A DNA stretch of 64,000 nt. Source: Callorhinchus milii. Taxonomy: Eukaryota. Under the pieces are notes generated by a model. The model searched no databases. It had not been told where the DNA came from and worked only from the letters and a program-made list of their open reading frames with translations. Shown one piece after another: positions 6,231-58,154 of this stretch (position 1 is the first letter of the stretch; every line of letters starts with the position of its first letter). The translations under genes and the position numbers were made by a program. The DNA lies in assembly GCF_018977255.1 (NCBI RefSeq), contig NW_024704742.1:58468001-58532000 (forward strand). Reading direction: 5' to 3'.

Positions 6231-6655
6231 TTTGCAATTAATACAGTGTCATCACTCCCCAACATCTCAAAGCACTTCACACAATAATGAGTTACTAACC
6301 GTACTCTTACGTAGCAGCTAATCTGCACCAGTAACATTGCATAAATGGCAATGGGATGAACAACTCATATTTCGCCCTTCACGTCAGAAAAGCTACATAA
6401 CAGTCAGTACCAGTTCAAAGTAACTCATTATTGTGTGAAATGCTTTGAGATGTTGGAGAGTGATGATGCTATATTAATTGCAAAATATGAATGTAAACTA
6501 AATTGAATTGTATAACCAAAACTTTCCTAAATTCAGTCACCTTATCAATAGGATGCCAGTACACCAGGGAAACTCATTAAAATTGTGCCTCAGGGATCCT
6601 TAATGCCCATCTGAACCACTGGAGCAGACAAGTGGGGCTCAATGGAAAGACAATG
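6231..6655 (-). mobile_element. DeuSINE-like copy interrupted by a mosaic insertion (about 6369-6560)
   Basis: SINE 3' part at 6231-6368 resumes at about 6560 (acaccagggaaactc...gggatccttaatgcccatctgaac), colinear with the 40194-40560 copy. Confidence 0.75.
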
Positions 6656-7583
6656 AATATTATACTGCCTCCACTTTTCAAAATGTGTCCCTTTCCTTAC
6701 AAAAAACACATCCCGTCACCCTGCTCAGGAGCATAGAAATCAATGTGTCTGGTGAACTATTTGTTCATATCTCAGCTGGCCTTATCCTGACTTCCTTCAA
6801 TCCTGTTATTGAGCAACAACACAATCAACAAAGCCATTCGTATGCTTTGAACTTGTAAAAATAGAAATGCCGAGCACTCTCATGTCCTCATCACAATGTT
6901 CCAGATCGCCGTTCTTCGGTGATCGAGAGAAATGATGACGCACAATTAAAACAACAAAGAGGTCACTGAACATGAATGTGAGTTGAATGTCAGCCACGAA
7001 CAAAGTATATTGCATTTCTCCTCCATCTGCTTGTGCCCTCAACTAGGACATCTGGGGAAACGGGGAGGGGTGAAAGCGAGAGAGAGAGAGAACAAAAGCA
7101 GAGAAAACAGTCTCTTACAGTGCTCGGTGATTGCCCATCCTATTGATAAGGTGACTGATTTAGGAAACATTTTTGGTTATGCAATTCAATTTACATTTAC
7201 ATTTCGCCCTTCACATCAGAAAGGCTTAACAAAGCTGGTTACATTTGGTTTAAAGTTCCCTTTCTTCCCAGCTGAGATCAGCTACCGCAGCCCATAGTGG
7301 GGGTAAAACTGCAATTACTCATAAACCCTTTAGAAGCCCTTGACGCTTCACTGGATACAAAAGTGAGATGTGTTTTTAGATGGCATTGAAAGGGAAAACG
7401 TAAGAGTAAATGGAAAATATCTGACACCAAAATGTAACATCAAAATCCCAGTTGTAGCACATTTGATCGAAAATGTTTACTTCAGTGATGGTGATAATTT
7501 TTAAATTGTACTCATCTGAAATTAAATACCAAAATAATCAGAGTACAAAGAAAATCTTAACAAGAGCATAAAGAAAATCTTAC

Positions 7584-8458
7584 TCGAAAAAAGTTGTCCA
7601 ACCGGTCTTGTCACTTTTTGTTGCCATGAGCCCACTATAGCTGTGGTAAGTGAATAAAACCAGCTCTTGACCCTGGGCTGTCATGCTTTTCAGTCCTCCA
7701 TTGGTGCCGATGGTTAGCCATATCACCTGGTTATCAGGGGATACTATTCTCACGGGCATCCGGTTGGGATCCCTTCGGATTCGCAGGATATTCCCGTTGT
7801 TGTCCGTCACTGCTGTGATGTCGTTCTCGTTGCTATAGCTGAAGTTGTAGAGGTAGTCACTTGTGATGAGGCTCTGAGTATACTGGTGAGTGCCATTGAT
7901 ATCAAAGATGTACAATTCCTGCTCTGAAGGGGAGGCTATCTTGTAATAATTCAATGAGTTCAGCACTGGCTTATTCTTGGAGGCTGCCCGGATACGAATG
8001 TTGCCCATGTCTGCAATATACAATGTGTCATCTGGAGAAACTGCCAGGGAGGACGGTGAGTTGAGCTTGGCTTCTTTGGCGTAGCCATCGCCAGACTGGT
8101 AACAGTCACAGCTGACATCATTCTTGCAGTCACAGTCTGAAGGCATGCCTGCAAGCAACGAGATCTCCCCATCTGTAGTTACCTGCCTCACACGGTTGAT
8201 CTTCTTTTCATCCGTCTCCGCAATGTAGAGGACCCCGCTGTAGGACACTGAGATAGCACTGGCAGACTCGAGCGCCGTGTGAACAGCTCGTTTTCCGAGT
8301 GAATATTCCACACCTGGAACCTGACAGTGCATGGGCCGGCCCGCAGCAATACGGACTTGGTGATTCTCTGTAATCTGAAGCACTATGTTGTTGTCTAGTA
8401 TATAGAGGGAGTTGTCCATTGGATTAATGGTCAGGTCTGTGGGCCATTCCAAGCGAAC
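7584..8458 (-). CDS. TENM3: Teneurin-3 large coding exon (end of NHL propeller and start of YD shell, VRLEWPTDL...GWTTFF)
   Basis: Acceptor tttcag|GTTCGC, donor GA|gtaaga; 875 nt open frame (ORF 7580..8452), phase 0 to 2. Confidence 0.97.
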
Positions 8459-9379
8459 CTGAAATTGGAAAGGTTTATTTTAATACTGAACTTCACATGG
8501 TCATAAGGAGCTACTCCAATCACATTAAAAACACTGGTTATATCTTCATATCTGCAAACAGACATTGACAATCACACTGCTTTTTTTAGACAACTGATGT
8601 AAAGGCTTTTTCAATAAACTAATTGACATCTCTATAAGATATTAAATGTATTTTAAACAGTAAAAAAGCACTCCCACAGTTTATGAACTGCTGAATCACT
8701 CTCCCAGAAAAGGCATTAATTTTCAACGTAAAGATTTATTGAAGGTAACTAATAGGAGCATTAGAAAAAATAGGACGCCAATACAAAACAGATTATACAG
8801 AGTAAAATGAGGAATCCAGAGAATATCTTTAGTTATTTTAGCAATAATAATAATAATTATTGCATTTGATATAGTGCCTTATCACATCAGTAAGACATCT
8901 CAAAGCACTTCACACAATTCATTGTAAAGTGAATTGACGTATTTATTTTGGTGGGCAAAACTCGGCTGCCAATTACGCACAGCAGTGTCCCACAAACAGT
9001 GGTGGATTGAATGACCAAATTGCCCATTTTTAAAAATAATAATAGGCAGTTTGCTAAAGCACAAACAGATTCTGTTTTGTATACATCGGGAAGCAATGTT
9101 ACAAAAAATTATGATGTGGCAGATGTACAAACATTTCAGATCCAGTTGGTTGTGACAGATGTAGGCAAACTATTTGACTTATAAATTGTGGGAGCATGAT
9201 TAGAGGGTCCAGGTTCAAAGGGGGATAAAAATCATGTGGAATCAGACTTTGGAATTCTAGTGTGTGTTGGAACTGGCTAAAACTGCACAGCTCACAAATG
9301 AGATCACTGTCTGGCAGGCTTCCTGCTGCTTGTTCAGCTTTGTTCACCCTATTCATTAGGGTTTTGCCTAGTAACATTG

Positions 9380-9975
9380 ACAACAACAACAACAAAATTA
9401 CATTTATAGAGCGCCTTTCACGTCGGGAGGACATCCCAAGGCGCTGGACAGTCAGGGGTCAGGACCTGAGCATGGAGGAGGGGTGGGGAAGGGGTGAGGG
9501 AAACCAGAGAGGTGGGAGGGCGACTGAAGGCACGATCGAAGGGGAGGGTCTTGAGACCGGCCTTAAAGGAGGCAAGGGAGGTGAAGGGACCGTGGGATGG
9601 AGTTCCAGAGTGTGGCTGAAAGCCCGGCCACCGATGGTAGGACGGGTCGGGCGGGAGACATGGAGCAGGCTGGAGCCCGCTGAACGGAGGGAGCAGGCAG
9701 GTTGGTAGGAAGTCAGCAGGTCAGAGAGGTAGGAGGGGGCAAGGCCATGGTTAGCCTTGAAAGTGAGGACGAGGATCTTGAATTCGATCCTCTGGGGGAT
9801 GGGGAGACAGTGGAGTCGGCCGAGGGTGGAAGTGATGGGGTCACGGAGCCTGGTGCGCGAGAGTACACGAGCTGCAGAGTTTTGGATGATCTGCAGCTTG
9901 TGAAGAGAAGAGTTGGGAAGGCCGATGAGGAGGGAATTGCCATAAGCGAGCCTTGATGTGATGAAGAGTCAAGAG
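9380..9975 (-). mobile_element. L2 LINE 3' portion (may extend to about 10185)
   Basis: Hand translation TSRLAYGNSLLIGLP...LQIIQNSAARVL...IPQRIEFKILVLTFKANHGLAPSYLSDLL; 3' stem-loop and (TTG)n tail. Confidence 0.92.
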
Positions 9976-10269
9976 GGAAGAATCCCTGCTCCCAGACTGT
10001 ACTTCGAAATCCTGACAATGAGCTCGGCTGGCTGGTCTGACATCAGCAATGCCTTGGAGAAGCGGATCTGCCTGGCTCAGAAACTGGGCTACACAGCTTT
10101 CCTCCAGGAGATAAAGTGAGTGGGGTGGTCTATTATAAGGGTAGGTTTTGAAATGATTAGTGGAGAGAAGGTGCTTCAAGGCCAAGTGTTTTTCATTATT
10201 CTATGCTTCTTTATTACTGTATGCTCTGAAAATCCTATTGGTTTGTATGCCAGAAATTACGTTTGTTCA

Positions 10270-23390: not shown

Positions 23391-26300
23391 GTTTTGTGGT
23401 TACTGCTGGACAGGATTTTATTTTTTAAAAAATGTATTAATTTTAGTCATTCTTGGGTTGTGAGCAACACTGGCAGAATCTGCAATCAAGAGGAGAAACT
23501 GTGACTTATATTTCCAAACCTAGCCAGATGCATAAAGGTCAAATTGTGTTGGGCCTTACTGGTTGAGATCAAGTAACTCAGCACCGACCAGGTATGAAAC
23601 CAGGTCTGCATGATTCTGCATCACACTATATGCGCTGTTTAAACCTCCTGAGATCTGTGTGTTGAGGATGTACACTTTGTATATTTTGGAAGTTTTTTTG
23701 TTTTAAAAAAAGCTTTTCATTTTCGTCCTATGTGCAATGAGACGTCTGCTGAAAGAGACACGTTATGATTAGTGTCCAACGCAGTTGCTAGCCAAGCAAG
23801 CTTCAGCCTGAGAAACCAGTTACCTGAGAAACTAGGTCAGCCGGGGAAGAGAGGGGATGTTGGTGGAGGGAGGGACAGAGAGAGATGAACTGCTGATTGA
23901 TAACCTGAAGATAGGATCGAACACTACAGAGCTGATTTTAAACCAGAGCACATGCTACAAACATTTCCTCTTTTAAAAGATAGCGGAAAAATAAAATTTA
24001 GTTGCAGAATAATTTCCAGTTGTTGACAGTAAAAAAAAATGCTGTGCCAGCAGGATCCCAGAAAGTTCAAATAATAGCTGGTCTTTTCAATGTGCTTTAA
24101 TAACATTTTATTGGCTGGTAAATCAGACCACATTGGGTGGTAGGATTTGCTTAATGCTAGTAGACGTTTGAACAACTCTTTGAGAGCCGCAATAAAATAC
24201 TGCATCAAAAATCATTTCCTATACATTTGTTTCCTTGTAGAGATTTAGAAACACAGTAATGTGATGCTGAGGGTTTGCCACAGATTTTGTAAAGATTTTT
24301 CTGTTGTTGAGCATTAAATCACTGCCCATCATATTAAGAAAGCTAACAAACACAATGTATTTTTCAGTTGATTTACAAAGTAGTGTGGATGAAGGCATGC
24401 TTTGTCGTTCAACGTTTGTTGAGAATCTGGAAATTACACATAAGTATTTTCTCAGGTGATAATAATCTTTGCATTTGATATAGTGCCTTATTACATCATT
24501 GATCCATCTCAAAGCTCTTCATAGACTATACTGTAAAATAAATTGACTGTATTTTATGGACAAAATGCAGCAGCCAATTGGTCACAGATATCCAGGGCAG
24601 AAAGATTTCTTTTAGCTTACTGAACCAGTTGCAGTGTTTCTCGCCCTGGTTTTTACAGCCCGTCTAAAAGGTTCAACCTCAGAACAGAACAAATCAGAAC
24701 ATTTTGCACATCGCTGCCGTGTGTGCTAAATTTAAGACTGACCATCCTGCCACAGTGCTCAGCATGCAGTCCCTGATCTGTGTAGGTAATAAAAACAGCA
24801 GCAACATCAAACTGACTCGAGATGCAAACATCATGTTCACTATGAATTATTTAGCAGTGCGAGTATGGTATTCTGACATTGAAGTTCTCCTTTGAAGACG
24901 AGAGAAGGAGCAATCTTCAGAGATGTCTTTTTATCATCACCTCCTGAAACAATTCAGTCTTGTTCCCACAGAGGGTGTGTACCATACACAGAGTCTGCTT
25001 TGACCCACAGCTCGTCACTTCCTGATTGTGTAGTTACACTGCTTGCAGTGCATAAAACATTCCATCTCCCTAAACCAAATCTGTGAGTGTCCACAAGAGA
25101 TAATGATAAATGTTAAGCAATTAAATTGGATGCTATCTCTGGATACTATCTGGATACTATTTGGGTTCTATCTTGCTTTCAATTTATGCATGTTCCAATA
25201 TATTGAGGCAAGGAATGAGTTTCTTAAGTGAAAGATGCTGCATCAAATACAAGAATTATTATCAAAGATTATTATTATACAGCCTGTGCACATCTACCGA
25301 GTCATAGTTTCATTGATTGTTGAATCCAGACCCCCTAAAAAACAACTAATTTTTATATAGCGTCCTTCACAATTGCATCTTGGCATCCCTGAAACCCAGT
25401 CTTCTGTACGTGAGCCTGGAAAAGGAGGCAACCAGCGGTGTACTGGTTGTTTCTGCAGGGAAATACATCAGCAATTTAGACAACAAGACCACACAGACAG
25501 TCATGAGATGAATGATCAATTAAACTGGAGAATTGTTGATCAGGCAAAACTCCCACTTTTGTTACCAATTAATAGATAAAGATTCAAGGTGCTTATTTGG
25601 ACCATTTATTGTTTTATAGGTTGCCTACAAATGTACATTCACTACACTTGAGAATAAAATCCTTGTTTAGCACTTTTAAGATGTTCTGGCAATCTTATAA
25701 AGCACTATATCAAATGCAATGATTTTTTTTTACAAGTTGGCTTTGCTACAAGGTTAGCCGAAGGCGAGTCACAGTAAAAATCCTATGAAGCACTTTGATG
25801 TGTCTCAGCGATGTGATAAAGCGCTATGTCATTGATAAAATGCAGGGATTAAAATAAGGTTATTCCCCAAAAAATACTTTTCACAAAATGGTACAGTACA
25901 TTGATATAAACTAGTTTTCAAAGCATCTTTCAAAATGTCAAGTGAAAGGTTGAAAGCTGCCAATTAGAGTTTATATTTTCATAGCAAATATTGATAGACT
26001 CAGTCAGTTCATGATCAGCAGCCTGTCAAATTTCCTCCCCATTCCCACTCAACGTTTTAAAGTTAATACTCAGATTGCTATTCTGTTTAGATCCCATCAA
26101 GGTGTAATGTGTTGCAAATGCTGGTTTTACAGCCATGCATGCTATAAGACCAGGTTCATACTCTGAACACACAGGGGAGCAGAAACCTCATAATATAATT
26201 TATTAATTTCTAATCAAACCCATCAGTTCGATGATTCATCCAAGGTGTGAAATAAAGTGTGATCTTCGCAATTGCTGCTGGAGCATCTATAGCCCTCCAT

Positions 26301-28039
26301 TTAGAAAATATCAAGTCTGAAACTGATATCAATAAGCCTACAGAGTCATTCAATAATGACTTCAATTATAAACATCTTCAATAAATTTTCCAAACATAAC
26401 TTGGTATTATCTGGCTCTGATTTCAAAATTAACTCTGCACTAGATTGGTGTCCGTTAACAGAACTGAAGATTAGTGCTGTTCTAAAAATAATAATTTGAA
26501 CACAGTACATTCAGTTATTCTGATATTGTATTATTGCCCATTGAAATATTGTTATAATTCCCTTTCAATTTTGTTGGTACAAAGGCCCCCCTATGTAGCA
26601 CCGCATCGCCTGCGGGTCCTGCTATCTGGAAGTATGATACACCTGATTTGGTGTATTTCCTAAAAAATTGACAATTTCCGGTTTATCAAATCATCATCGT
26701 ATCACTTCCTGCACGCTATGCGCAGGAAGCGTCACTGATGCCACTTCTTATGCAACTTCCTCAGCAGTCTCTCATTTCCCCCAGTCACTCAACCGTTTAG
26801 AGTTAATACTGAGATCATTTATTTATAAAAATCCCAGGTGTAATGTGTTGCCGAAATGCTGTTTGGTGTTACAGCTACAACAATAAATTGGTTTTATATA
26901 GCACCTTTCACTCGGGAGGACATCGCAAGGAACCTACTTGTGCTACAAGCCTAAATTCAGACTGTACCTGGAAATAAAATATTGTTTTGTGCCTCTTTTT
27001 ATAATGCAAACAAAGAGATATCGGACCCAGTCAACTAAGTTATAACAGGGTTTCCCGGTACTTTAATAATAATCCTTGGATTTGATATGGTATCTTTCAT
27101 GACTATGGTGGTTAGATGATCCATGATTGTCAAGTGATAAGGACACAATAAGTAATCTAGCCAGGAAGTGGAATGACCAGTGAAGGTTGCTGTTCCTGAT
27201 CACTATCCAGTGACTGCTGCTGCAAACTGTGTATGTGTGGAATTCAAGGAGGGAAGAAATGGTTTTAGGCTTAAGGCCAACACCTTAAAAATTACGATCA
27301 CGACAAGTATCCATAAGAGCACAGTTTCCAAAATAAGTCAAACTGTAGACTTTCAAGAGTCTGCACTTTCTTAAATTTTAAGATATTGCTTCTTAAAGAG
27401 GGGAGAAAATATAACATAATGGAATATTAATTCACGGATTGTTCGTGCACTTCTTTTTTTAAAAGTGATAAATCGGATAAATGACATTTCCACATTTGCT
27501 CCAAATAAGGCCTTGTTGAATTAATGTAACCCACTAAACAGCTTTGAAACAGGCTGTGACCGGCTTCTGGTGTACATTCACGTCACCCAACTGTGACCAT
27601 TACTTTTCTCCAAATAGCTGAGTTCCATAATTTTCAGCAAAAGAATCCTTCATGTCAGCACAGTCCATTATTACACCTGATTCATTCTGTAATTATTATG
27701 AAAAATTAGTGCCTTACAAGTCCCCTCAATAAAATATAAATGGGGCAACGAACAATATTTTATCGCCATTAGAATATTTATGACCGCTTCTTCTGGGTGT
27801 GAAAACATCTGCCATTTGCTGAGCTTGTCGTAAGAGCTAATCATGTCATTCATTCAATTAGTTGCAATTCACGTTAGAAAGTGATTGCCTGTCATTCAAA
27901 ATCCCGGGATAATATAAAGCATCCACTTATCTGCGCAAGAGTGAGTGGCACTGCCTTTATGCTCCTGATTTTTTTTCTTGGCGAATGCTCCGTGGGTCAG
28001 GATTCATTCGGTGACAAGATTTGTTTGAACGAAGAAGAC

Positions 28040-41675: not shown

Positions 41676-44600
41676 TTCTTGTCCGGTAACCATTCCCAGG
41701 ATCTTGTTTTCTGTATACCTGAATGTCAATTGGGAAAAATAGAGTAAAAATGATCAAGACCAAGAATGTGGTCTCTCTCCTCCACCTCAGTGCCATTTCC
41801 AGTCAGGGCGTGAGCAAGACACTTATATGCAAACCTTTAGAACTCTAAATCCTGTCAGGTTGCACAATAGCAGTTTGGAGTGATGTATATGTCCTTCAAC
41901 TTTTACCTCCATTCTTTGTGAAGTTTTGACCTCCACTCATCCGCTGGGGTCCAATGATATTACCATAATAGAGGCTCTGAGAGGGTCTTCTTTACCAGTT
42001 TCCTTCCTCTCCACTGTCTAACCCTTTTTAAAAATAGTCTTTCAAAAAGAATAGAGTTGAAATATAAAACACCGGTATTCACTTGATTCCCTTCCTTTGT
42101 ATTTACAGTGCAGTATTCTGCAGAGTAAATACAATTGCAGAACTAAAAGAGTTAATGTTTTCTTTTAGCACTGCTGTATAATTCCTCCCCCAGGAAATAT
42201 AGAGAGAAGTACAGAAAGAGGCACGCTGAAATTTAGTAATTCGTCTTTGTTAGATTATGTAAAGCAAATGTACATCTGGTGTGTAGTCTGCAGGTCATAA
42301 AACTGCATGAGATTGACACCCTCAGAACTAATCATCTGGAAATGCATTTTTACAAGCTTCTCTACGAACATCAATCAGAAACAAGAATCTCATTTTCAGC
42401 TGTTGAGAAGGAGCCTGAAGTGTTTGGTTATTTTGTGATGGAGTTTATCAGCTACTTGCTCGAGTGAGTGACGGATAGCTGCTGAACTGTTTTTTTCTCG
42501 AATTGAGAAGCTATTTGTCATTGTGCAATGTGTTCAAAGAGCCCAGAATTATTTACTTGCTTTAACTTCATTGCACTGCTGTTCAAGTAGTTCAGGCAAG
42601 ACTAGCTGTGCAGAATTGCATTGCAATGGGAGAATTGAGGTTTCTACTGGCTTGTCACATTGTGAAATGCACTTTGTACTGAATAGATCTTATCACATTA
42701 GAGCTATCTCCATTACAGAAACTGGTCAAAAAGCCAGGAAACTAATAATAGTAAATCTGAGATCTCAGCATCTCTGACAACAGTGGTTTTCAAATGAAAA
42801 TTATGGAATAAGATAGGTACATGGAAGATTTACACAAAGATTTTGTAGGATATCGTTACTGCTGGAATGTATGAGGGGCCTTAACTACAAGAAATAGAGG
42901 CATAGAATTTTTCAATAACTGCATTACCAGCATTTTGAGGTGATCATGCTCTGTTCTGGTGACTAAACAGTAGAACGCCATATGACTGACTACTTGCATA
43001 TCCGCTTATCCACATTGTGACCCTGAGATGTGGAAGGGAAGCTGGTGTGTGTTGTCAGCAAAACATTTTTAGTTTACATGTATGGCATGTGACTGTGAGT
43101 ACTGGTAGGAATGCACCCTGCATACTTAATTCTGGAGAGTATTAGGGGCTGGTTAATAAGAGCCAAGGTTTGGGGACTTTAGAGTGTACATTGGGATACT
43201 ACCAGAGTTTAACTAACTAAAACTACAATAGCTTGCCATTGAGAGTACTGTAAGGCAAGCTTTCTGTTGCTTATCCTATCCATAAGGAATTTGACTCGCA
43301 GAGTTAATAGAAGCTGAGAGGGGAGAGTCCCTGCTCCCAGTGACTGGATTGCCCCTCCAAATCCTGTTGATGAGCCAGACATACAAACACACACAAACAA
43401 CAGAGGCCGATATATACACTTTTTCCAGTTACCCAATTAGGCCAGTCCCAATTAATGCAGATATGGCATTCACTGCTGCAGTAACCTTTACCTTTACACG
43501 TAAGACCTAACAAAACATTCACTGCAGCTGTTGAATATTGTATGATAACCTTTGGTATACTAATATGTTATAATATTGTACAGTGTCACTATTCATTTGT
43601 AGTGTGGAGATAGTTGAACCATGCATAGAAATCATTCGAGAAAGCTCCAAGGATTAGTGGCAATTCATTTGTAATACGAAGAACATACACACAGGAGTGA
43701 GTTACCAGGCTATAACACATGAGACAACACAATGTCATAAACTGTGAGAGTGAACCCTACAGCTTCTAAGTGTGCTGCCATCGGAATCAAAATATTCATA
43801 TGAGATTTAGCGCTATTGATTTTTTTTGTAAATGGTGTTGGCAGTGCCAGCAGTGGGAATTAGACTGAGTGGCTGAACTGAGTGAGAATTGGCTGGAGGG
43901 ATTGGGTGCATTGGCTGTCACTATTGTATGATGTTGCACAAACTGATATGATGTTACTTGACTCAAATTGGGATAGAACACATTTTCTTATTCTGGACTT
44001 GCTTGAATTGTAACATTTTTATTTCTACTATAATAAAATATCACCCTTCCCCCTTCTCTCTTGCTTGGCGTCCAACCCCGCCATTGTGAAGCGCTCCAAG
44101 ACATTACCCTACACGGAAGGTGCTATATAAATCCAAGATGTTATTTTGCTGTTGAAAGGGTAAAAAAGTGCCAGACAAAAGTTTTTTTTTAGCATATCAT
44201 TCTGAATCAATCGTTTGCAATGACATTTTTTGAGAAAAATGTCATCCCTTCTTCTCTGAAGGAAGTGTCAGTGCTCAATTGAGGTTATCATGCATTGCTG
44301 TGAAGCAAACAGCAAAAAGATTCAATACCTTTGCGGGAGAGTGTGCACATTCCAATCCAGCCGGCCCCACAATGAAAAATTTGCTCCTTTGTGGTTTGCA
44401 TACCAGTATGCAGCCCAAGGTTATAAGCAGGGCAAAATCATTGACAAACTGAAATGCAAAAGCATTTAATCTGGAACAAGTACCGTAGCCCAACCAGGCC
44501 TCAGTAAGATCGATTAAAGAGGAATTTGAACCTTGCCTTGAGTATAATTGTGAATCCCTGGTAGTGATGGCTCAGTGAATTAGAATTGTGTTTTCAGTTC

Positions 44601-44974
44601 TGAAACATAAGTTCAAATAGGATGAAAATCTTTTTCTGACGGATGTAAAAGTTCTAAATGAAATCAGTCTTAAACTTGCTGCCTTCAGCTTGTATATGAA
44701 GGGCATGAAGAACAGTGCTTATAGGGTGTTCTAGCTCAAGTATGTAGCATTGGAAAGCAAGCAGAGGTAGGGGGCAAGGATGATTGGTCAGCCGGGTGAC
44801 TGACACATTCAGAAACCCAACACCATACTTAAGATATCTGAAGATCCACATATGTATGCCACATACACATGGAAATTTCCTTGTGGCTGGATTGGAATGT
44901 GCACACTCTCCCTGGAAGGATGTACCCAGAATGTGTGTTGGGGTACTGCTGGAGTTTAACAAATTAAAACATTA

Positions 44975-45180
44975 TATATAGCTTGGAATTGAAAGCACTC
45001 TCTGGCAAGCTTCCAGCTGCTTGTCCTGTGAGGACCGCCCAATTCATTGGGATTTGGGCTTGCAGGGTTAACAGGAGCCGAATGGGAGGAATTGCTACTC
45101 CTAGTGACATGGAGGGAACATGACACTCTCTTTGGCAGAAAGATGGTTGGGTAAACTGAAGGTTAGAGAGGCCCCAAGAC
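44975..45180. repeat. Unclassified interspersed repeat; relatives at about 9270-9375 and 43225-43370
   Basis: Shared ggca(a/g)gctt(t/c)c.g.tgctt.tc followed by cat.ggg.ttt...gcag.gttaa. Confidence 0.55.
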
Positions 45181-46985
45181 TGGAATGGAAAATAGAAATA
45201 GCATACAGGTGCAGTGTCAGCTGCTCTTCTGATGATGTAAATAACAGTTGTTGGACCGTGAAACTCCACCCTCCATCTGACCTATGCTGTACCTGACCTG
45301 GATGCACTTAATACAGACAGTGGGTACAAAACGTATAAAAACACATTCCTTAATATTCTTTAACATTTCACTTTCATTGCTTGGGTTTAGTTATTTTTTT
45401 GATAAAACAATCCTTGCATTGATATAGTGTGATTCACGTAAGGAGGATTCCTCCAAAGTGCCTCACTGAATTTGTGCAAATCAATGCATGTCTGGACTTT
45501 AAGCTTGTGGTCTCATACAAAACCACCTAGTTGAGTATACCTAGTTAGAAGGTTATGCTTGAAGGCTTAGTTGAGGAAGGGCAGGAGGAGGCTCATGTGG
45601 AGCATAAACACTGGCATAGACCAGTTGGACCGAATGGCCTGTTTCTTTGCTGTATATTCTAATATATTCTAATGTAATGTATACAAAACGACCAGTTGAA
45701 TATTTCTCTGCTAAAGTTGGCAATGATATTAATTATTTTGCCCTTGCATAACATTAGCTCACTGCAGTATTAATTTGGCTAAAGATCTGAATAGTAACTA
45801 AACCACTAACATTTCTGCAAAGCCATTGATTAATGATAAATTCAACATCCAATAGACATCTGCATTCAGGCAGAAACAATTCTGTTTACCGGGATATCTC
45901 AGCAGAGAATAAGTCAATTAAAGCTTGGTAAATTAATTGTCATTCACCTCAATATTACAGTCAATGGATCAGAAAGTCAAAATTGCCATCCCAAAAGTGC
46001 AACTGTTCACCAGCTTCTCATTGATGACTAATCCTTGACCTATTTTCAGAGGCTTCACACTTGAATTTGGAGTGCAGTGTCCCATTATTTTTATGCACAA
46101 TTTGACTGGATGCAATCAAAAAAATGTTCCCTTCACTGCATTGCACAGTGTTCCCTTTAGTGCAAATGCATTCAACTGAGTCAAGTGTGTGTGAGTTATA
46201 GGCAGTCCTTTGAACTGAGCTTTGCAACCTTTAAGCTAGGGATGCAGCACTCAATCATGGAGTTCACAATTGTCCTTCAATAGTTCACATTTAATGGTGA
46301 TAAGTTAAATGCACCATGAAATCCACTACATAAGCACCATACATTTGTTTTTAAAATTATTATTTTTCTAAAAAATATTATCAAGCAGTTATGCAGGAAT
46401 TCTTGAGTCAAGGAGCATTAAAGCTTGCATGGTACAATTAGGGTTTCATGGTAAACAGATATATATTATCAGGTTTTATATTCAGGTGCACCACTTGTCT
46501 ACAGGGCTGGTAACACCCCTAGGCCAAACAGTGGAGTGGATAAAATCAGATATTTCTGGTCCATGAACCAATGTGTTACACACAAAAGCAATTACTTTTT
46601 TGTTCTTTGTATCTCAGTTGATTGAAATCAACGTGAAAAATACAGCTTTTACACCAGTGCAACCTGAACCAACTTTTCTGATTACATTATAAATTAATTC
46701 CGTCTGCCTTGTCATTCAGGAGGAAATAAAATGAATCATCGCACTGTAATTGGCTGCTCATCTCATTGTTGTTTATGGGCTGTTGCTGGAAAAGATTAGC
46801 TGCCATGTTTGCCTATTTTACAATATTCACATCTTTCTTATAAATTTTACTTCCTAAACTCTGCGGGATGTTTATTTGAAAGGTACTAATGTACATGAGT
46901 GAAGGCTATTATCATTATTACACTCATTTGTAAGTTAGTAAAGTTATGCTACAAAATATTTCAATGTTACCAATACCTGAGGCTA

Positions 46986-47311
46986 TTAATAATCCTAATA
47001 ATAAGCCTTGCATTTGATATAGCGCTTTTCACGTCGGGAGGATGTCCCAAAGCGCTTCACAGAACACACTGTAAAGTGAATTGACTGTATATTTGTGGGC
47101 GAACGCGGCAGCCAATTGCGCATAGCAATGTCCCACAAACAGTCGTAGATTGAAAAAGACCAATTTATTATTGTTTTGGGTTTTGGAGGGATTATTATTG
47201 AGCTCAGTGTGGAGTAAGGAAACTTGCCCAAGGTTTCGCCCTCTGCCTGGAATTGAACTCAGGTCTCTCGCTTGCAAAGCAAGTGCTCTAACCACTGAGC
47301 TACAGGACTCC
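46986..47311 (-). mobile_element. Young full-length tRNA-derived SINE, copy 2
   Basis: Reverse complement begins GGAGTCCTGTAGCTCAGTGGTTAGAGCAC; same body and tail. Confidence 0.93.
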
Positions 47312-49778
47312 ACTATAAGTTAAACTAATCTAAGGTGGGGACTACCCCTTGTTTGGGTAGTTAGGACCTCTTCCAAACAAATATAATGGCTGCTGGTTAT
47401 ATGTGTGCACTTAAGTAGTTGATAGTATGCTTCAAACTCACTAATGATGCCTCATGTATTTCTCTTAACGGGTGTCAAGAGTAATTTGCCCACTACTTTA
47501 ATTCCTTGTATGTCTGGAAATGCTTTCCCCTCAAAGTAGGTCTGAAATAAGGAATGCCGTAAGGAAAAGGGTTGTAAGTAAGTACACCCTCTTAATATGT
47601 GAATGCAAACAGGAACGATGAACATACTTTACAACATTCAAAATGGGATTCTTAAATTATGGATATTGCAACTTCAAATCGAAGTCCAAAGAGAATTTAT
47701 TTTCCATTGCCGAAACATTTTTTACACCTAAATATTTCTATTTTTGCCTTGACTTTACGATTTTTCTATATATTAAACCCCATCCATTGCACTTCAAAAA
47801 TAACTGCTATTCCTAGTTTTTCTTCATGTCGTCCATCAAAGTGCTGAACACTAGACATCAACTTCACCAGCTAATCACTTCACCAGCACATTGTATTTAA
47901 TGAAAAACTCTCAGCATGCTACTAAGGTCTGACTGATGGGGTGCCGTGTTTGAAGTTTTCTTTTGCTTATTCATTTTTAAAGGCTTCATTTCATGTGTTC
48001 TTTAGTACCAGAATACCACACAATTGCAGATTTTTGAGTGCACAAGGAAGGAAACCTAAATATAGATTAAAGCCAACATGCTAGCCAATTTATTAGCATC
48101 TAATGTATTTCTCTATTCACAACAATTGAAGATGAAGTTACACTCAAACGTAAAGGAATACGAAATGAAAGTATTATGAATATTCAAATTGTTCCAATGT
48201 TCATGTCCCTTTACTTTATAACCTTCTGTGAGGGTTTTGGAGATGGGAGTTGTAATAAGATAATACTAATCCTTGTGTTTGATGTGGGAACCAATGATGC
48301 TGTCGAGATGCCTCAAAACACTTCACAGGATTTACTGTGAATGTATATTTTGCAGGGGAACATGGTACAGCAATGTTCCACAGGCGGTCATGAAGTGAAT
48401 GACTTTTTCTTATCTGGGGGTTGCAAACACTAACTAATAATTTTTGCACTCTGGATCATACCCACTCATGCCAAAATTGAAACGTATTTAATGGGGACAC
48501 CCTCTAAGCTGGCAAAGAAGAATAAACACAACTTTCTTCCCATCAAGTCTGCTTTCAACATTCCATCATAAGGGACTTACAGAATCTAAACTAAATGGGG
48601 ATCATGCTTTTGAGAACAGTTGTTGCAAAAAAAGTTACAAAATATTATATTTTCATCTGTAGAATGAAAAATTAGCAAATTAACAGCCGGTTCTAAGCAG
48701 CTACTTCCCGGATCCTTTCTCTGTGTTACTAATTGAAGCCAAGCTGCTGGGACACATGCCCACAATTGCAGATTGTGCTTGTCCTTGCTTCTAAAATACT
48801 GTTACAACCAAGTCTCTTACTGTGAAGGAAGTGCGCCTCCTGGGACCGTTTGTACAGGGAAATCTGTCCACAGTAAAGCCAACAGGCAAAGCAGGAAAAC
48901 AGCAAAATGACAAGATTCTGGCAGAGAAATGGCATGCAGCAAAGAAACCTGGATTCCTTGTTCATAGCGCAGGACACAACTGAAATATATTACTGCTGCA
49001 GGGGATTGAGTTTGTAAAAAGCCTTAAAAAGTGAGCTTTTTTTTTAAACAGATAAGAGGTGAGTTCTTCTGTAACATGTATCAAAAAGAATGATCGATGA
49101 CCTCTCACTCTGTAATGAACAATTGACATTATTAAACCTCTCCCTTAATGTTTAAGGTCTTTAAAAGTAATGACCAAGACTCATTACGTTATCTCCTACA
49201 AGCAGAGTTAAGCTGATCCAAAGCATCAAGAAGTTCATTAAAACATAATATTGCTACATACTATTAAAGAGACGTGGATTGCTGTCAACAGGGGTCTGGT
49301 GGTATTTTTTGACTCATTTGGTTCCTGCCATCAATGTTTTAACTCCTTGCAAAACAACATAGGACCCTTAACGTAGGTTAACATCTCGGGGTGTTTCACA
49401 AGGACGGGGTCGGATGCTGAGCAAGGTAGAAGGGGAAGGGATGGTGACTGTAGACACAGTTGAATAGGTTTTTGGGTGGAATCTGTAGTCGGGTAGAAAG
49501 GAACGAGGTGGAGAGGTAGAGAGATGCAGAAATTAAGGTTAAGATTAACAAGTTGCCCCTAGCTTTTTGCCGCTAAGTTGAATTTGAACTCTCGTTTTGT
49601 TTTGTCGAATGGTTTGTTAGAATCACATCTCTATTACGGGTCTGTAATCATCAGGATGCTAAACAGCTTTAAAATGCCAGGGATCATTCCATAATTTGCT
49701 TTTGTTCATTCAGGAGATTTTCTGTTGACCTCCACTGATGTTTCTACAGGTGAAGTGTTCACGTTTCTTTGCGCTTAC

Positions 49779-49925
49779 CTCCTTCATTGTCCTTGCTGTC
49801 GGAGCAAGCAGTCTCCATAGCAACATCGCATCCCGTTCCTCTCCACCCCATCTGGCAGACGCAGTGCCAGCCATTTTGGTCGAGGGTACATCTTCCATTA
49901 CTATTGCAAAGTCCAGGGCAACCTT
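49779..49925 (-). CDS. TENM3: Teneurin-3 coding exon (EGF8, [25 protein letters not shown]...SKDNEG)
   Basis: Acceptor tggcag|AAGGTTGC, donor GGAG|gtaagc; 147 nt, phase 1 to 1. Confidence 0.96.
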
Positions 49926-50221
49926 CTGCCAATGACAAAAGGACATAGATAATAAATACCAAACACACCACTTATGTTCTGCTCTGTTATGCAAGTAAAC
50001 AAGAATGAAAGAGCAGCAGCTACAAGCCTTTTTAAAAGCACGCAAATCATAATTTCACATGGATAAACTGTGGCCTTGTACAATAGAAACTGAACATTTG
50101 TTCCTCTTTGAAAGGACAAATATCTTACATTTTTCATGATGTACTGCAGAATAGTTCTAAGAGTAGTAATTGCAATAAAATGCCCAACTTTCAATGTGTA
50201 AGATTCATGTGAGGGTTTTAA

Positions 50222-50390
50222 GATATAGAATATTACGGCACAGAAGGAGGCCATTCGACCCATTGTGCCTGTGCCGGCTCTTTGGAAGAGCTACCCAGTC
50301 AGTCCCACTTCCCCCGCTCTTTCCCCATACCCCTGCAATTTTTTCCTTTTCAAGAATCTATCTGATTCCTTTTTGAATCTGTTTCCACCG
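50222..50390 (-). mobile_element. CR1 3' UTR fragment
   Basis: Reverse complement of CR1 terminus: gcacagaaggaggccattcgacccattgtgcctgtgccggctc. Confidence 0.8.
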
Positions 50391-52774
50391 TGACTGAAGA
50401 ATATAAATGGTCAAATAAGTATTTATGCGGAGGGTAATTAACGACTGGTACAGATTTCCAGGAAGGGTTTAAATCAGTCCAGTGTTCTGTTGAGATCAGG
50501 ACACTTGACTGATTTAAAATGTAGCTTGATGCTATGGTGGGGTAGTTGTCCTGGAGGGATGAAATGGACTGAAGGGTCTTCTTCACCTGAACCAATCTTG
50601 TGATCTTGGATAAGTGGAGAAGTCAGCTTTTGGTGAAAATGATCTCATAAGGAACAGGTTTTATACAGGAAAGTGTCAGATTTCATATTACCCTAATTCT
50701 TAGGATAATGTCATGGATACCACAGAGGACTAAATGCTCCAACAACTGTAATAGGGATAGCAGGGAAATAACACAGGAATAATGTGAGTAATGTCATGGA
50801 AGGATTGATTTCACCAACTTGCTTCAGTTTGCCTTATTATGATTGTCGTTCCTCGCTGAAAATGGTAGTTAGCATCGGGAATAACAATTCAGACAAACTT
50901 AACTCATATCAATTAGAATTTGGAATTAGGGAAACAGTGTGTCTCTGTATTGGTACAGAGTGCCGTCCTTTTAATTGTCGAATCTGATTTCAGAAACAAC
51001 CCAGACAGAGGAGAGCTCATCACTTTTGATTTGATGCCTGATACAAAATCCAAGTGAAACAAATTTAACCAGTTTGAACCTGATTCCCAGTGGAAATGAA
51101 TTCCAGGACAGAAGTGTCCCAAAATTGCCAAAACTTTTGTCTTAGAAAAGTTACAAGGACAGGCACTGTACTGTGTGTGGGAAGGTGCGAAGAAGGGTCA
51201 CATGTTTACAGTAAATAGTCTGCTGAGCTTGATGATGCAGCACAGTGCTAAGTCGAGCACTGACTGCATTTTGACTGACGATATGCTTGACCTGCAACTT
51301 CTGGCTGTTATGAAAGAGGTTCCTTTTCGCATAGTCTACCCTTCATTTGCTAATTCCAACAAGTGAAAACTCTTCTTGTGGAATGACTTAATCCATTCTG
51401 CATCCTATACACAACTTCAAACTTTCCTGCATAAAGAATATGAACAAGAATAAATTACTTAAAAAATTAAAAAGAAATTTTGTATGCAATAAAGCCTTGT
51501 TGGACCTCAATTTAGACAAAATAGGTTTGAGAGCTAGGGTAACATCTTCCCACCCCCTTTTCTCTCCACCCCTCTTGGCTCCAGGCCCCAGCTCAGGTGC
51601 AAACCCTTTACTGTCCACCACCTTGGAATGTCCTCCCGATGTGAAAGGTGCTGTATAAATTCAATTTGTTGTTGTAACAGAATGTAGCTTGCATCCTCAG
51701 GGCGTCATGATCTTATCTGATGGCATTTGAAGAGATGGCAATTTCCTGAATAGATTAAGGAAGGGGAGAGTGGTGGAGGACTCAGCCAATGTCCCATGAA
51801 GCATTTGTGGAGGAAAAAGGCCATGACTGAGCCAAGAAACAAGAAGACAAAAAACTGAAAGGAAAGGAGAGAATAAGGTAAAAATAAACCGAAAGGAACT
51901 AAATACAGCGGGCCCATTTCAGGTATCCAAGAAAATCTATGTCTGTACTTTAAGTTTTGTTTTAAAAAAATCTAAGGAAGATACAATAGTTATCTGGAAG
52001 AAAATAAGGAAACTTTAAAACATACAAAGGGCAAATCCAGTAGATAGCCACATCTAAAAGACTCAGTTTCTGAGCTCTGCCCATTATGCCCAGTCTCACC
52101 AAGTTCTATTTGCTTCCAGTATTTCAGAATCCTTGTTAAGATCTTCTTATTAAGGTCACCTTACAACTCTTCCCACACTATCTATGCTTGCTCCCCATTC
52201 ATTTTTCTTTGTCTAGTTTAGTGTTGGCCACTTAAGGCAAATATGAGAGACGCGTGACTAATGGAAGCACACACACAATACCTGTGTTTGTCTTCTGCAC
52301 CCAAAATTCACAGATGGAATCTATTCCTCTTGTAGGTTATGCAAATTGGGGCTTATTCATGTGAAATTATTGTAGCTAATAAATAGATGAACAACATATA
52401 GGAAGAGCATTTACTGCTACATTTTATTACAAAATAAGAATTTAAAATGTACACCCTTTTTAAAGGAATAAGCAAAGGCCAGGAAACAAGAGACAAAGCT
52501 CAGAGCACCTAACCTTTAACAAATTAGATTCAAGGTTGCAGATGGACTGAAGTGGACAGACAAGGGTTTCAACAGAAACAATAGCTTTGCACGTTGAACT
52601 ATTTAAGACAAACAGAAGCGTAATACCAGAAGAACCACAATTAACATAAAAAGACTGAACAGAAATAAAATGAGCATTGGAAATAAAACAAACAAACAAA
52701 AAAGAACTAATGCTCGAAGACAGAGAGCAGAGAGGGATTGTTCATAACAATCTCCCTGGGGCTTTTGTCTTTAC

Positions 52775-52795
52775 CTTTATATCCTATCTTGTCTG
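52775..52795 (-). CDS. TENM3: Teneurin-3 microexon, EGF splice site A second cassette (A)DKIGYK; 21 nt, or 18 nt (52775..52792) via NAGNAG
   Basis: tttttcctccttgtccataatag|CAG|ACAAGATAGGATATAAAG|gtaaag; phase 1-1; DKIGYK recalled from vertebrate TENM3 isoforms. Confidence 0.85.
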
Positions 52796-53593
52796 CTATT
52801 ATGGACAAGGAGGAAAAATTTGGAAACACAATTAAAAAGTGATGGCATATCCAGAATCTGTATTTATATAAATGGAATAAAAAAAGGATGCTTGCATTTG
52901 CAAAAATGTGAGTGAATTAAATAAAATCCCTACAGCTCTTTTTAATGCAGAAACTCTACTATCGAAGCTTTCACCTTAAATAGGACAAGTTTGGCAATGC
53001 AACTCCACAAACTCTTTTTTAAAGTGAATATATATTTCAGAAATGCTGTTAAAGCACACAAAATACTATTAATGAGAGATGAGGTGCCATGATCGTTAAA
53101 AACGTGTATCAAATTTGCTTTAAGCCACTTAACAGTTTCACACAGCGCTTCAAAATAATGTTTGACATTGTTACAATTGATTTCTTCTTTACTGATAAAA
53201 TTACTCTTTAAAAATGGTGTATTCTGTGACCCATTTTTTCCAGCAGTAACTACAGTAATAGTGATTACCAGGAACTAACTGTTCTCAATTACATTTCAGC
53301 GATTTTCAAATATTACAGTATGTGGGTTAGCAAAGGTACCACAATGTGTAAGAGTGCAAATATATCCAAAGCAATTCTATTTCTGCGAACTGACTTGTAG
53401 GATATACCGTCTGATAAAAGTATTGCTGATATAATTCAGTATTAAGGGCTTGTTAATGCACCCATTATCGATCCCAGAAACATGGACGAACGAAAGTGAG
53501 ATGACGATAGAGGGTTAGGTATCTGTTAACTTATTTACTCTATGTGCAAAGACTGCACAACAAACAAGAAGAAAGGAAAAAGGCATACAGTAC

Positions 53594-53620
53594 CTTTAAC
53601 TATTTTATCCAGAAAGTGTG
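53594..53620 (-). CDS. TENM3: Teneurin-3 27-nt microexon, EGF splice site A first cassette AHFLDKIVK
   Basis: tgttttatttctcaag|CACACTTTCTGGATAAAATAGTTAAAG|gtactg; phase 1-1; homologous to mammalian AHYLDKIVK. Confidence 0.92.
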
Positions 53621-55574
53621 CTTGAGAAATAAAACACAGACATTTCAGAACAATATTACACAGAGCAAGGAAATCACTGCATTTCTGCCTTTCACATGCA
53701 AATGATCCGTGCTGTTGCATTCAACAGGAGAAATCAACATTGGTGTAACCATGATAGGAACAGGTTGCAATTGTATTTAAGACAGTGTAACTTTTTTCAT
53801 ACAGTTCTACATTTGAATCTGCATAGAAGCAGCCTGTTCTCAATGCGCAAGATAGAGACTGACACACATTGCTGACAAAGGTCTTAATCGGTGAAGTAAT
53901 TCACAGGAAATCCTATGAATGGAGAGCAGCCCTGCTCCTTTCTGTCTTACTCATTTTGATTTAGAAATCAGAAGTGCAGTCTATTATTTTCAGAATAATT
54001 CCTTTTCAGAATACAGAGACAGCTTGCTTGGATCTATTCACGATAGGACACCATGGACTTAGAGCCAGTCTGTGATACAATAACCTTTAATACCATACAC
54101 CAAGCTAATCCTCTCAAATCTCAGATCTCAAAATAGCACATTGGAGTTTTTGGCAGGTTCGGTGGTAGAGACAAAGCCCATTTCTGGTTTCAAGAGGGAA
54201 GGAGACAACTATATGAAAGATAGAGCCTCGAATGGGTATGGGGTTAGGACTGAGTAGTAGAATTAAAAGAACAATTTGCTCTGAGAGCCCATGCAGACTC
54301 AATGGCCAAATGAAGAAGAACTTGAGGTTTTATACTACTAGATTGTATCAAAATATTTCAAAGTGTCTCACAGGATTTACTTCACAGAAATTAGTATAGT
54401 AACTTTTATTATGGGAAAGAATGACAACCATTTTGCCCACAGAATATCCCACGGACAGCCATGAGCCATGAGATCCATTTGTCTGGAGAACAAGACACTG
54501 AGAAAATTCTTTTTTTTAATAGTGTGTGGGATCTTTAGCATCCACCAGAAGAACACATAAATGGGTTAGGCCTTGGTTGAACTTTTCATCTGAAAAATGG
54601 CATCTCCAACAATGCAGGCGTAAGAGATAGGGAGGATGATGTTAATTCTGTGTATCAGCAAACAACAGACTAGTGATATTTAGGTGCCAATGTTTTGATG
54701 GCTAGGACACTGGGAGAAGCTCACTTCTCTTTTGGATCTTTATTATTGGTTAATTTTACCATTTTCATTTGTTAAGGATTATATTATATCATGCTCAGTA
54801 TCTGAAAGTCCAGCCTCCAATTCATTATATTCCTGACGAGCCAATAAAGCCTCTTCATTAACAATTAACCTCACTTTTACACCAATTCGTTGCAATGAAT
54901 AATAACCACCATCATTACTGCTCCATTAGAGAAATAAATAGACAGAACTCATCATCAGATCCAGATTATTCACTGTCAAGATATTAATAGGTCTGATGGA
55001 ATGGTAATAATGTACAACTGGGTACCCATTAAATCTGTTCAAGTTAAATCACTGAGCCCCTAAATCTGACTCAATTGCTCGACCACTGTTTTTTCATTTG
55101 TTAATTGTTATTGATTGCACATTCTCACCACTTCACAGAAACAGATGAATTTGTCATATGCAGTTTTTATTTGCATGAATCGGATGATTTAGTTATCGAA
55201 AATCTGCAGCGAACCTTTCCAAATTCCTCGTTGAGTTTATCTGTTTAATGTATACTGTAAATATTGTGATCACTTTATTGTCTTTCATCATCAGCCTGGA
55301 TTCCTATATCAAACATCTCAAGTAAAAATAATTTCATCTACATTCTTTTATCACTCCCAAGTGCCAATTTTGGCTCCCTGCTTGACGTTTACATCCTTGT
55401 ACCTCTCACGTAGCAGCAGTATTGGTGATTTAAAGCTGGTACATTGAAATTGCTGAATGGATACTTTAATATGATGGGAAAATGGTCAAAGCCCAGAAAG
55501 TGAAGGTAGCGGGGGGTGGGGGGAGCTGCTTTGAATTGTAGTACAAAGCTGAACCGCCAGGGGGGTCAGGGTAT

Positions 55575-56020
55575 CAATTGATGACATACTCACCTTTGAA
55601 TAGGAAGATTGTGGGTTCAAGCCCCAAGTAGTGACTTGGAACAATTGAGTCAGATTTAGGGGTTCAGTGATTCAACTTGAACGGATTTACTGAGTTCCAC
55701 ACTTGTCCATTACCATTAGACCTATTAATTCACATAGTTTAGGCTGATACTCCAAGGAAATGCTGAGGGTATGCTGTATTTTTGGAGATGTTGTCTTACA
55801 GATGAGACTTTAAATCAAGGTGCTATCTGTCTGGTCAAATAAACATTAATGATCCCATGGCACTATTGGAAAAGCGAAGGGAGTTTGTGGGCCAACAATC
55901 CCCCAATTAAAATTGGTCATTCACTTCATGACTGTTTGTGGGACATTGCTGTGTGCAAATTGGCTGCCGTGTTCACAAAATACATATTAACTACATTTCA
56001 AAGTATATTCTTTGAAGCCT
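55575..56020 (+). mobile_element. DeuSINE-like copy with an inverted local insertion at 55639-55729
   Basis: gtgggttcaagcccc B box; gatgagactttaaatcaagg...gatcccatggcactatt Deu-like core. Confidence 0.82.
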
Positions 56021-57447
56021 TTTATAGTAACATATTATATTGAAATATCTCAAAGCACTCTGCATGTCATAACTGTAGAGTGCAGTGACTGTATTTGCAG
56101 GCAAGCATACCAGCCTTTTGTATCAGCAAGTTCCACAGACAACCATTGTATTAATTAAAAAGAATTGTAGAAAATCAGCTTCCAAATGAAGATTGAATTT
56201 CATTTTCCAATATTCTGCACAACCTTAGTTTTAAGGGAATGGTCTTAAGGTCTAAGAATATGAGTAATATCAACCTCAGATGCAGAGGGAAGGCAGTTCA
56301 GCTATTTTTGTTCATTTGTGGCAACTTTTGCACCACTTGAACATTCTACAAAATTTATCTTCAATCATATAAAAGAAAAATAAGATCACAAGTCAACAAA
56401 AAATCCAAGTGGGATTTAGCCTCTCATTCCTGAATAGCTTCATTTTCACTACTGAAGTGAAGTGCCATATTTACACAATCTATTTCAGTGTGGCCTTGAA
56501 TAAAAATAATAATTATAATCCTTGCATTCAGTATAGCGCCTTTCCATGTCAGAAGGATGTCTCAAGGCGCTTCACAGGATTCACTGTGAACTGGAGTGAC
56601 TCTGTATTTGTAGGTAAATTCGTCAGCACAGTAGTGCACAGCAATGTCCCACAAACAGCCATGAAACAAATGACCAATTTTATTTGGGGAATTATCAGCC
56701 AGGACATGTGGAGAAAATAACTCTATTGTAGTAGTGACGTACTGGATTGGAAATACCTCCTTTCACCTGCAGGGCCTGGATGTGATTGCTATTCAGACTG
56801 ATAGGATGAAAGTCTCTCCTGTCCGATGGCACTACAGGTCCCAGATGAAATGATGTTGGACAGGCTCATTCCAGTGCTTTGTAGCTGCAGGCTCATAGCA
56901 CAAACCTGTCTATAATTTGGTACTAAATTGTCATGGTTCATTCCAATAGTGCCACGATGATGGTTCATTGCAGGAAACAAAAAGCCATTCTTTTGACATG
57001 AGGGTTTCAGATGGGTTATAATGGGAGTTTACCAAGTATTTAATCTGCGCTACATCTGAACATAACTGATAACAAATTGATAAATATATGAATGAATAAT
57101 AATTTGACACAGTGCCGTTGACTCTATTTTGTATGTGATGCTGAAACTTGGGTGTTAAAAGTGAAAAAAAACCTTGGATCCCTACCTTAATAAAGCATAA
57201 AATTTTGCCATGCCTCTATTCACAAAAAAGGTAAATAGGATTTAGTTCATTGAGATGCAGGGGAAGCCTTTCTTTTATGAATAGGATATCACTTCTTAAG
57301 AACTCTTTTGGAAAATGGTTTTTTAATTTTCTTTTAACAAATCTTACCTTGAGTAAATGGTTGAATATTTTTTAATGCATAGCTATTAATCGTTAAATGT
57401 TACAATTATTGGCCAGAATGCTGTTAAATGTGATGCCTTATACAAAT

Positions 57448-57845
57448 AATAATTATAATAATTCTTGCATTTCATGTAGTGTCTTTGCCATTGGGAGGAT
57501 GTCTCAAAGCATTTCACAGGATTTACTGTAAAGTGCTGTGACTACATTTTGTAGGCGAACGGGGCAGTCAATTTGCACACATCAATGTCCCATCAACAGT
57601 GCTGAAGTGAATGACCAAACTATCTGGAGGATTGTTGTTCAGGGCATTGTGAGAAACCCTCTTCTCTTTTCAAATAATGCCATGGGATCTTTAGCATCCA
57701 TTTGAACAGGCAGCCAAGAATGTTGTTTAACATGTCATCTGAAGGATGGTATCTCTGATAAAGGAGTGCTCCCTTAGCATTGCATTGGAGTGTTAAGTTA
57801 CGGGGCCTGAACACACAACCTGAGAGTGCTATCAACTGAGCCAAT
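57448..57845 (-). mobile_element. DeuSINE-like copy, near full length
   Basis: Tail...gccatgggatctttagcatcc...gtttaacatgtcatctgaagg...gagagtgctatcaactgagcca head. Confidence 0.82.
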
Positions 57846-58154
57846 TTGTATAAACCAGTATGTCTTGCTCATTTTGATTTAAAAATCAACAGTGCATTCT
57901 CTATTATTTTCAGAATAATTCCTTTTCAGAACTCAAACAGCTCACATGGAGGTGAGAGTGCTACCAACTGAGCCAGACCGATACTTATTAATACGTTTTT
58001 CTTTCAGTTTCAAAAAGGTAATGCTGGTCTCTGCTAACTGTACTAAAGTTCATGAGTGGGAAATTACGTCAAAAATTCAGTGGCACAGCTTTGCTGGATT
58101 TAGTGCTATATTTAAGAATGGAATCAACGACATTTCATGACGTGTACAGCACAT

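Follow-up and report, generated by a model that had tools for sequence, protein, structure and literature searches.

The 64,000-nucleotide stretch of the Callorhinchus milii genome analyzed here (the window; contig NW_024704742.1, positions 58,468,001 to 58,532,000) carries part of a Teneurin gene on its minus strand, the largest exon of which is matched best by Teneurin-3 (584 bits; Teneurin-2 reaches 493 and Teneurin-4 468). Five loci in the TENM3 introns hold short segments of DNA that recur close by, in either direct or inverted orientation. A sequence-only reading had listed six such pairs. All six are present, and the first locus holds a seventh copied segment that had been missed (6369-6394, a direct copy of 7201-7226), so that four of the seven segments are inverted. 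Contig sets from four samples (X3-X6; ~0.9 Gb each, one of which could be the source of the assembly) were aligned to positions 44180-58100 of the window at 80% likeness. The features concerned, several of which involve old copies of a short interspersed element (SINE), are the following:

6217..6616, minus strand: old SINE of family A, host of a composite insert, at which 21-28 consensus positions are missing
6229..6315, minus strand: tail of this host SINE, donor of insert segment A'
6369..6394, plus strand: insert segment C, direct copy of 7201-7226 with 2 mismatches in 26
6392..6486, minus strand: insert segment A', the SINE tail of the host itself (6229-6315) copied in inverted orientation
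6487..6489, no strand: filler of 3 nt
6490..6555, minus strand: insert segment B', inverted copy of 7136-7203
7136..7226, no strand: donors of segments B' and C, overlapped by the remnant of an L2-type tail (7187-7234)
26015..26133, plus strand: left arm of a direct pair
26761..26875, plus strand: right arm of this pair, which meets an L2-type tail (26871-26932) at the tail's 3' end
44328..44410, minus strand: probable acceptor, inverted copy of 44849-44919 with a perfect core at 44335-44362
44849..44919, plus strand: probable donor, belonging to a dispersed repeat with a high copy number
53943..54032, plus strand: donor of the 57861 insert, crossed unbroken by one 2,976-nt contig from sample X3
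54983..55080, plus strand: donor of the 55639 insert, in a single-copy bin (depth 12-21)
55573..56022, plus strand: old SINE, host of the 55639 insert
55639..55729, minus strand: inverted insert of 91 bp, beyond which the host SINE continues almost or entirely without loss
57442..57843, minus strand: old SINE at the 57861 locus, whose inner head lacks ~14-15 nt found in other heads
57844..57860, no strand: filler of 17 nt
57861..57950, plus strand: direct insert of 90 bp copied from 53943-54032
57953..57975, minus strand: outer SINE head, 22/23 identical to 57821-57843, a duplication flanking the insert
7580..8479, minus strand: exon-bearing frame of Teneurin-3 (NHL/YD-shell), given as gene context

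At 55639-55729, an inverted copy of 54983-55080 (81/99 identical; gap 558 bp) interrupts a SINE, as had been proposed, and this insert is absent from other copies of the SINE. Its left junction carries a three-of-four microhomology, the flank ending in GAAC and the donor starting with GAGC. The bin that contains the donor (54875-55339) is single-copy, as against depths of thousands in SINE bins, and one X4 contig covers 54633-55871 without a gap and hence holds donor and insert together. The placement of the 57861 copy at a SINE head was likewise borne out. This direct copy (53943-54032/57861-57950, 78/92 identical; gap 3,828 bp) lies, in the sense of the SINE, behind the outer head, with which it shares the letters TC, and is followed by the 17-nt filler and a second head. 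For this filler, no nearby donor rose above background, the best candidate being 10 nt, inverted, at the 3' junction of the same SINE (57438-57447). A high-depth contig of the SINE family skips 57796-57955 in all four samples. The bin of donor 53943 has a depth of 345-505, but it includes a SINE edge. Inside this donor, an X6 contig departs from the window at 53979 (77 of its letters do not align) and 53982 is the end of an X4 contig, a possible allele. Among the contig matches listed over 44180-58100 no empty allele was seen, and none of those listed spans 57861-57950.

The third SINE-hosted locus is a chimera: a 187-bp insert drawn from three donors into one acceptor (6369-6555), which replaces the 21-28 host consensus positions. 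That a SINE is interrupted here was correct in the sequence-only reading, but its right edge at 6565 overshoots into the host. Since 6556-6565 belongs to the host SINE and not to the copy, the first of two nearly equal spacers that had been remarked upon (560 and 558 bp) is really 580 bp; a fixed spacer of ~560 bp was rejected. The gaps at the five loci are 580, 627, 438-522, 558, and 3,828 bp. The inverted match of segment A' to the host tail (6229-6296/6419-6486, 63/68 identical) extends to 6229-6315/6392-6486, and, of the 45 SINE pieces compared, each of the two arms has the other as its best match by far (105 vs. 60 and 49). Segment B' is 62/69 identical to its inverted donor (6490-6555/7136-7203). 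Microhomology is present at every internal junction; GCT is found at the inverted host-tail copy, and CA is common to B' and the right flank. The positions 6483-6490 form an 8-nt inverted repeat of 6365-6372, and a later inversion between these repeats is an alternative for the layout of the chimera.

Of the remaining two loci, one is a direct pair (26015-26133/26761-26875, 94/127 identical; gap 627 bp); a GC- and CpG-richer stretch (26560-26760; CpG observed/expected 0.79) lies immediately before its right arm. The other is inverted and perfect over 28/28 positions (44335-44362/44885-44912), with a weak extension (61/83) and a gap of 438-522 bp, so that the copy length of 65-115 bp given earlier does not apply to it. 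At position 44892 the summed depth reaches ~6,800-10,000, compared with ~4-13 for single contigs, and ~90% of this repeat depth reads A in place of the window's T. The 44335 arm has the base that matches the window; since this is its neighbor's minority base, the arm was probably copied from, or corrected against, that neighbor, and the 44885 arm probably served as donor with the 44335 arm as acceptor. The earlier picture of arms that are unique throughout thus needs qualification: the 44885 arm belongs to a high-copy repeat and the 6229/6419 arms are tails of SINEs, while donor 54983 is indeed single-copy.

The pairs have bit scores of 52-123, whereas the maximum across 40 block shuffles was 42.8; they are therefore real and above chance. 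Each of the five inserts or arms tested scores 56-111 against sequence within 5 kb and 24-39 against sequence elsewhere in the window, and the gap between donor and acceptor exceeds 50 bp and stays below 5 kb at all five loci. For a test of distance we took pairs at E<1e-5, left out SINE-SINE matches, a self-palindrome, the multi-copy match 18032/50225 and the three-copy family 43191/44938, and merged two matches of one element. Nine two-copy non-SINE pairs resulted, five within 5 kb (P=0.006) and four within 1 kb (P=1e-4). A looser clustering of distances around ~520-630 bp (partners 0.44-0.75 kb apart at four of the five loci) is a post hoc observation (P ~0.01). Substitutions between arms amount to 5-19%, plus indels, and the events are thus of differing age. 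The pair 43191/44938 was considered as an additional local copy and rejected, a third copy being present at 9296-10023; for SINE gaps at 11366, 25565, 54618, and 60160, no local donor above background was found. A 90-bp insert at 41471-41560 cleanly splits a SINE and mimics a templated insert, and it matches only the distant segment 2761-2851 (82%). We take this 2761/41471 element to be a CR1 3' end.

The SINE-hosted copies are much younger than their hosts. Their arms show mismatches at 9/90, 11/88, 5/91, and 5/68 positions (5-13%), where 34-58% would be expected at host age (P<=4e-7), and the difference persists when only one arm is allowed to evolve (P<=0.023). Two biases affect this comparison: local alignment lowers arm divergence, and the leave-one-out consensus built from the window probably raises host age somewhat. 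With the clock of PMC5499810, which is uncertain, the events date to 22-97 million years (My) ago; a sixfold slower clock is rejected in the same source. The junctions at these three loci, read against an empty site reconstructed from other SINE copies, comprise microhomologies of 2-4 nt, filler, and small deletions or the 23-nt duplication, with no signature of a polyA tail. An empty site is known for three of the inverted segments, and in all of them the side that faces the donor is the one with the microhomology, as a resected 3' end folding back would predict. A SINE in register at the donor, as a priming site, was sought and not found.

Taken together, these data make it highly probable that the pairs are repair-mediated duplications (RMDs), i.e., neutral scars of separate germline double-strand breaks that reached fixation in the course of tens of millions of years. 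What is observed are the copies, the junctions, the age of the copies relative to the hosts and one single-copy donor; from them we infer the break, its resection, the fold-back geometry and neutrality. A double-strand break would have been resected, and a 3' single-stranded end would have paired through 2-4 nt of microhomology with DNA 0.05-3.8 kb away. For an inverted copy the 3' end would fold back on its own strand; for a direct copy the other end or the sister chromatid may have provided the template. After 26-120 nt had been copied, dissociation, sometimes a second switch, and joining to the other end would follow, with filler, a short duplication or a small deletion as the trace. The three-donor chimera at 6369-6555 may have arisen when both broken ends were extended and then annealed to each other. 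The templated insertion by DNA polymerase theta (Pol theta) or break-induced replication mediated by microhomology (MMBIR) that had been suggested thus stands as local templating during break repair, on the strength of the junctions and the young copies; the specific pathway does not, for the sequence does not tell the machinery of synthesis-dependent strand annealing (SDSA) from Pol theta or MMBIR.

Several points weigh against this interpretation. Microhomologies of 2-4 nt at a reconstructed site can be due to chance. The direction of copying at 26015/26761, a pair that offers no empty site, could be either, and the 44335 pair, with its perfect core in flanks of 65-70% identity, may be an old repeat that was later corrected. 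The four distant two-copy pairs all look like dispersed repeats (one lies beside a reverse transcriptase frame, one has inverted ends, one falls in a high-depth bin, and one is taken to be a CR1 3' end), and hence two copies per window do not prove uniqueness; single-copy status is well documented for donor 54983 and in part for 53943. Moreover, the 13 read runs recovered included no related species, and consequently no outgroup allele was seen.

Other origins were considered. A reverse transcriptase that jumped to neighboring DNA while a SINE or L2 element was inserting could account for the fact that family-A SINEs, with 10.5% of the window, host three of the five loci (P=0.01), and that a fourth abuts an L2-type tail. 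However, at each of the three SINE-hosted loci the host is far older than the copy, even with one arm evolving, which makes capture during retrotransposition unlikely there, although the consensus used probably overstates host age somewhat; moreover, two of the copies sit in mid-element, with SINE sequence on either side. We therefore judge such capture improbable. It is also doubtful that the pairs are merely chance neighbors among low-copy dispersed repeats, or the terminal inverted repeats of miniature inverted-repeat transposable elements (MITEs). The high-copy 44885 arm and the SINE tails at 6229/6419 would suit this view, and repeats such as 2761/41471 and 30765/50558 do show up as two-copy pairs, but the pairs are enriched at short distance, the 6229 and 6419 arms are each other's best match among all SINE pieces, and the 44335 arm has a base present in at most ~10% of the repeat-family depth. 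The bins 54875-55339 and 44180-44644 (the latter inside the 44335 pair; depth 13-19) are single-copy, which speaks against an abundant MITE, whose whole element would be expected in many copies.

Template switching during replication, or gene conversion between older neighboring repeats, could have made or polished the pairs with no resected break. Late correction would fit the 28-bp perfect core in diverged flanks at 44335, the 8-nt inverted repeat around 6365-6490 permits a later micro-inversion, and template switches are described as common in human evolution (PMC5453318). Neither process by itself explains how unique DNA at a distance of 0.56-3.8 kb came to be cleanly inserted into SINEs when the donor offers no repeat in register. 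We consider this origin unlikely, although template switching and break repair may not be fully separable by sequence alone. Hardly credible, finally, are double-stranded RNA stems selected for regulation of the TENM3 pre-mRNA, or assembly artefacts. The four inverted pairs do have predicted duplexes of -79 to -121 kcal/mol, but six ordinary inverted SINE pairs reach -87 to -489 kcal/mol. Within 2 kb, six of the nine inverted matches are such ordinary pairs, whose predicted duplexes are as strong as those of the copies or stronger, and the special stem role suggested earlier is thus not supported. No pair brackets a recognized exon, small exons possibly going unrecognized, and a function of the copies is unlikely. 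With regard to artefacts, an assembler does not create arms that differ by 5-19% substitutions plus indels; furthermore, 0.88-0.96 of the words of 5800-8600 are present in each of the four samples, and the contig over 54633-55871 spans both donor and insert, which together make an artefact unlikely.

The repeats recognized in the window with three profiles, plus stretches added by hand, total 15,131 bp, a lower bound. Old SINE family A accounts for 6,721 bp; its 18 copies diverge by 0.19-0.56 from a leave-one-out consensus. SacSINE1-CM has a mean divergence of 22.4% (PMC5499810), and family A resembles it in this figure. Rfam matches in the window are confined to three tRNA-like heads of young SINEs (40734-41059, 46988-47320, and 60671-60998), which are 88-92% alike; the first two are mutually inverted and form the strongest predicted duplex among those tested. 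At 60102-60502 a plus-strand SINE head (consensus to ~267) is followed by a reversed tail (290-400), as if the 3' third had undergone a micro-inversion in place. Oppositely oriented SINE pieces with short overlaps at 25438-25864 and 28191-28367 resemble 5' inversions or fold-backs, and the piece at 25624-25864 has two tails. Further features are two copies of a small MITE-like element with inverted ends (19522-19688 and 58663-58874), a degenerate old direct repeat with a period of ~170-250 bp (4704-5078), and imperfect short palindromes at 42097-42134 and 50468-50518.

Among related phenomena are the doublets of Thomas et al., reportedly short, local, non-tandem duplications with near-identical short matches for which an origin in break repair has been proposed; the copies described here differ from them in being 5-19% diverged and, in four of seven segments, inverted. 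The closest described class is the RMD (SDSA-like, with donors within 5 kb), and it is well supported that our loci belong to this known class of mutations. In the human genome, 824 RMDs with donors <5 kb and a mean length of 162 bp were reported (Pace 2009; PMC2671141). Inserts of at least 50 bp in transposable elements (TEs), donors within 5 kb, microhomology, filler, deletion or short duplication at the junctions, and chimeric acceptors are common to both sets; ACSBG2 provides an inverted example, two-donor chimeras compare with the three-segment chimera here, and extension of both ends followed by annealing fits Figure 1 of that study. In contrast, our copies are shorter and their donors nearer than the reported peak at ~1.2 kb. 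The TE-interruption rules of that survey (an insert of at least 50 bp in one TE, halves at most 30 consensus positions apart, neither half exceeding 95% of the consensus) admit 55639-55729 and 6369-6555; 57844-57952 probably falls foul of the 95% rule and the rules are inapplicable at 26761 and 44335, so that two of five loci qualify. Its demand that the insert occur at only one other genomic place holds for donor 54983 at 80% likeness and partly for 53943, but not for 44885 or the SINE-tail segment, while its junction signature without a polyA tail is found at the three SINE-hosted loci. MMBIR-type templated insertions (PMC8421209) and synthesis-dependent end joining through microhomology (SD-MMEJ) by Pol theta (PMC7407515) are alike in inverted copies, microhomology, multi-template events and germline variants. 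The former search considered templates within 100 bp, and only segment A' has an inverted template that close; the other six segments have partners at distances of 0.44-3.8 kb. Class 2 templated sequence insertions (PMC5110952) likewise patch a break with DNA, but their templates are distant and ours local.

Two qualifying loci correspond to a density of 133 per Mb TE DNA (95% confidence interval 16-482) at 15 kb of TE, a figure from one selected window with no control genome treated by the same method; at 25 kb of TE it becomes 80 per Mb (10-289), and 55639 alone would give 66 per Mb (lower bound ~2). The ten vertebrates surveyed by Pace 2009 range eightfold, from 0.08 to 0.65 per Mb TE DNA, values stated to be minimum counts (PMC2671141). 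At 0.65 per Mb, two loci in 15 kb have P=5e-5, which ~15,000 windows nearly reach once; after correction for ~15,000 windows, four or five loci in 64 kb have P=0.002 and 1.5e-5, respectively. The pipeline of Pace 2009 is conservative, and this difference in method is the remaining doubt about the excess. No cartilaginous fish is among these ten, the word "shark" being absent from that survey, and a literature search, with most subscription papers outside its reach, found no survey of such duplications in this group; a motif scan of metagenomes for control host DNA gave 119 loci, none with the SINE. Substitution is slow in this genome (PMC3964593; PMC10587355), which lengthens the time over which copies can be detected, yet the stretch of primate evolution that Pace 2009 covered is of a length close to 22-97 My. 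It is plausible, from this one selected window, that such copies became fixed unusually often in this lineage.

With respect to germ cells, resection at mouse meiotic breaks averages 1,100 nt (PMC7263140), close to the donor peak of human RMDs at ~1.2 kb, although Pace 2009 cautions that the peak could be artefactual (PMC2671141), and local inverted inserts with microhomology at mouse meiotic breaks require resection (PMC13532658). Donor distance may thus be linked to resection length. We give even chances to a broader proposal, namely that RMDs are at least 10 times, perhaps 100 times, denser here than in primates and reflect a lineage-specific repair habit: template copying by fold-back on resected ends, possibly at meiotic breaks, with donor distance recording resection length, and a slowly changing genome rewritten by local copying. 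Each event by itself is ordinary; the density is what is of interest. If it held genome-wide, local-duplication rates among vertebrates would differ far beyond the reported eightfold and be decoupled from the substitution rate. Antisense copies of exons and splice sites in the introns of this genome would then have an explanation that makes a regulatory reading needless, and resection and template choice in the germline could be studied on natural, dated repair scars of C. milii in their tens of thousands.

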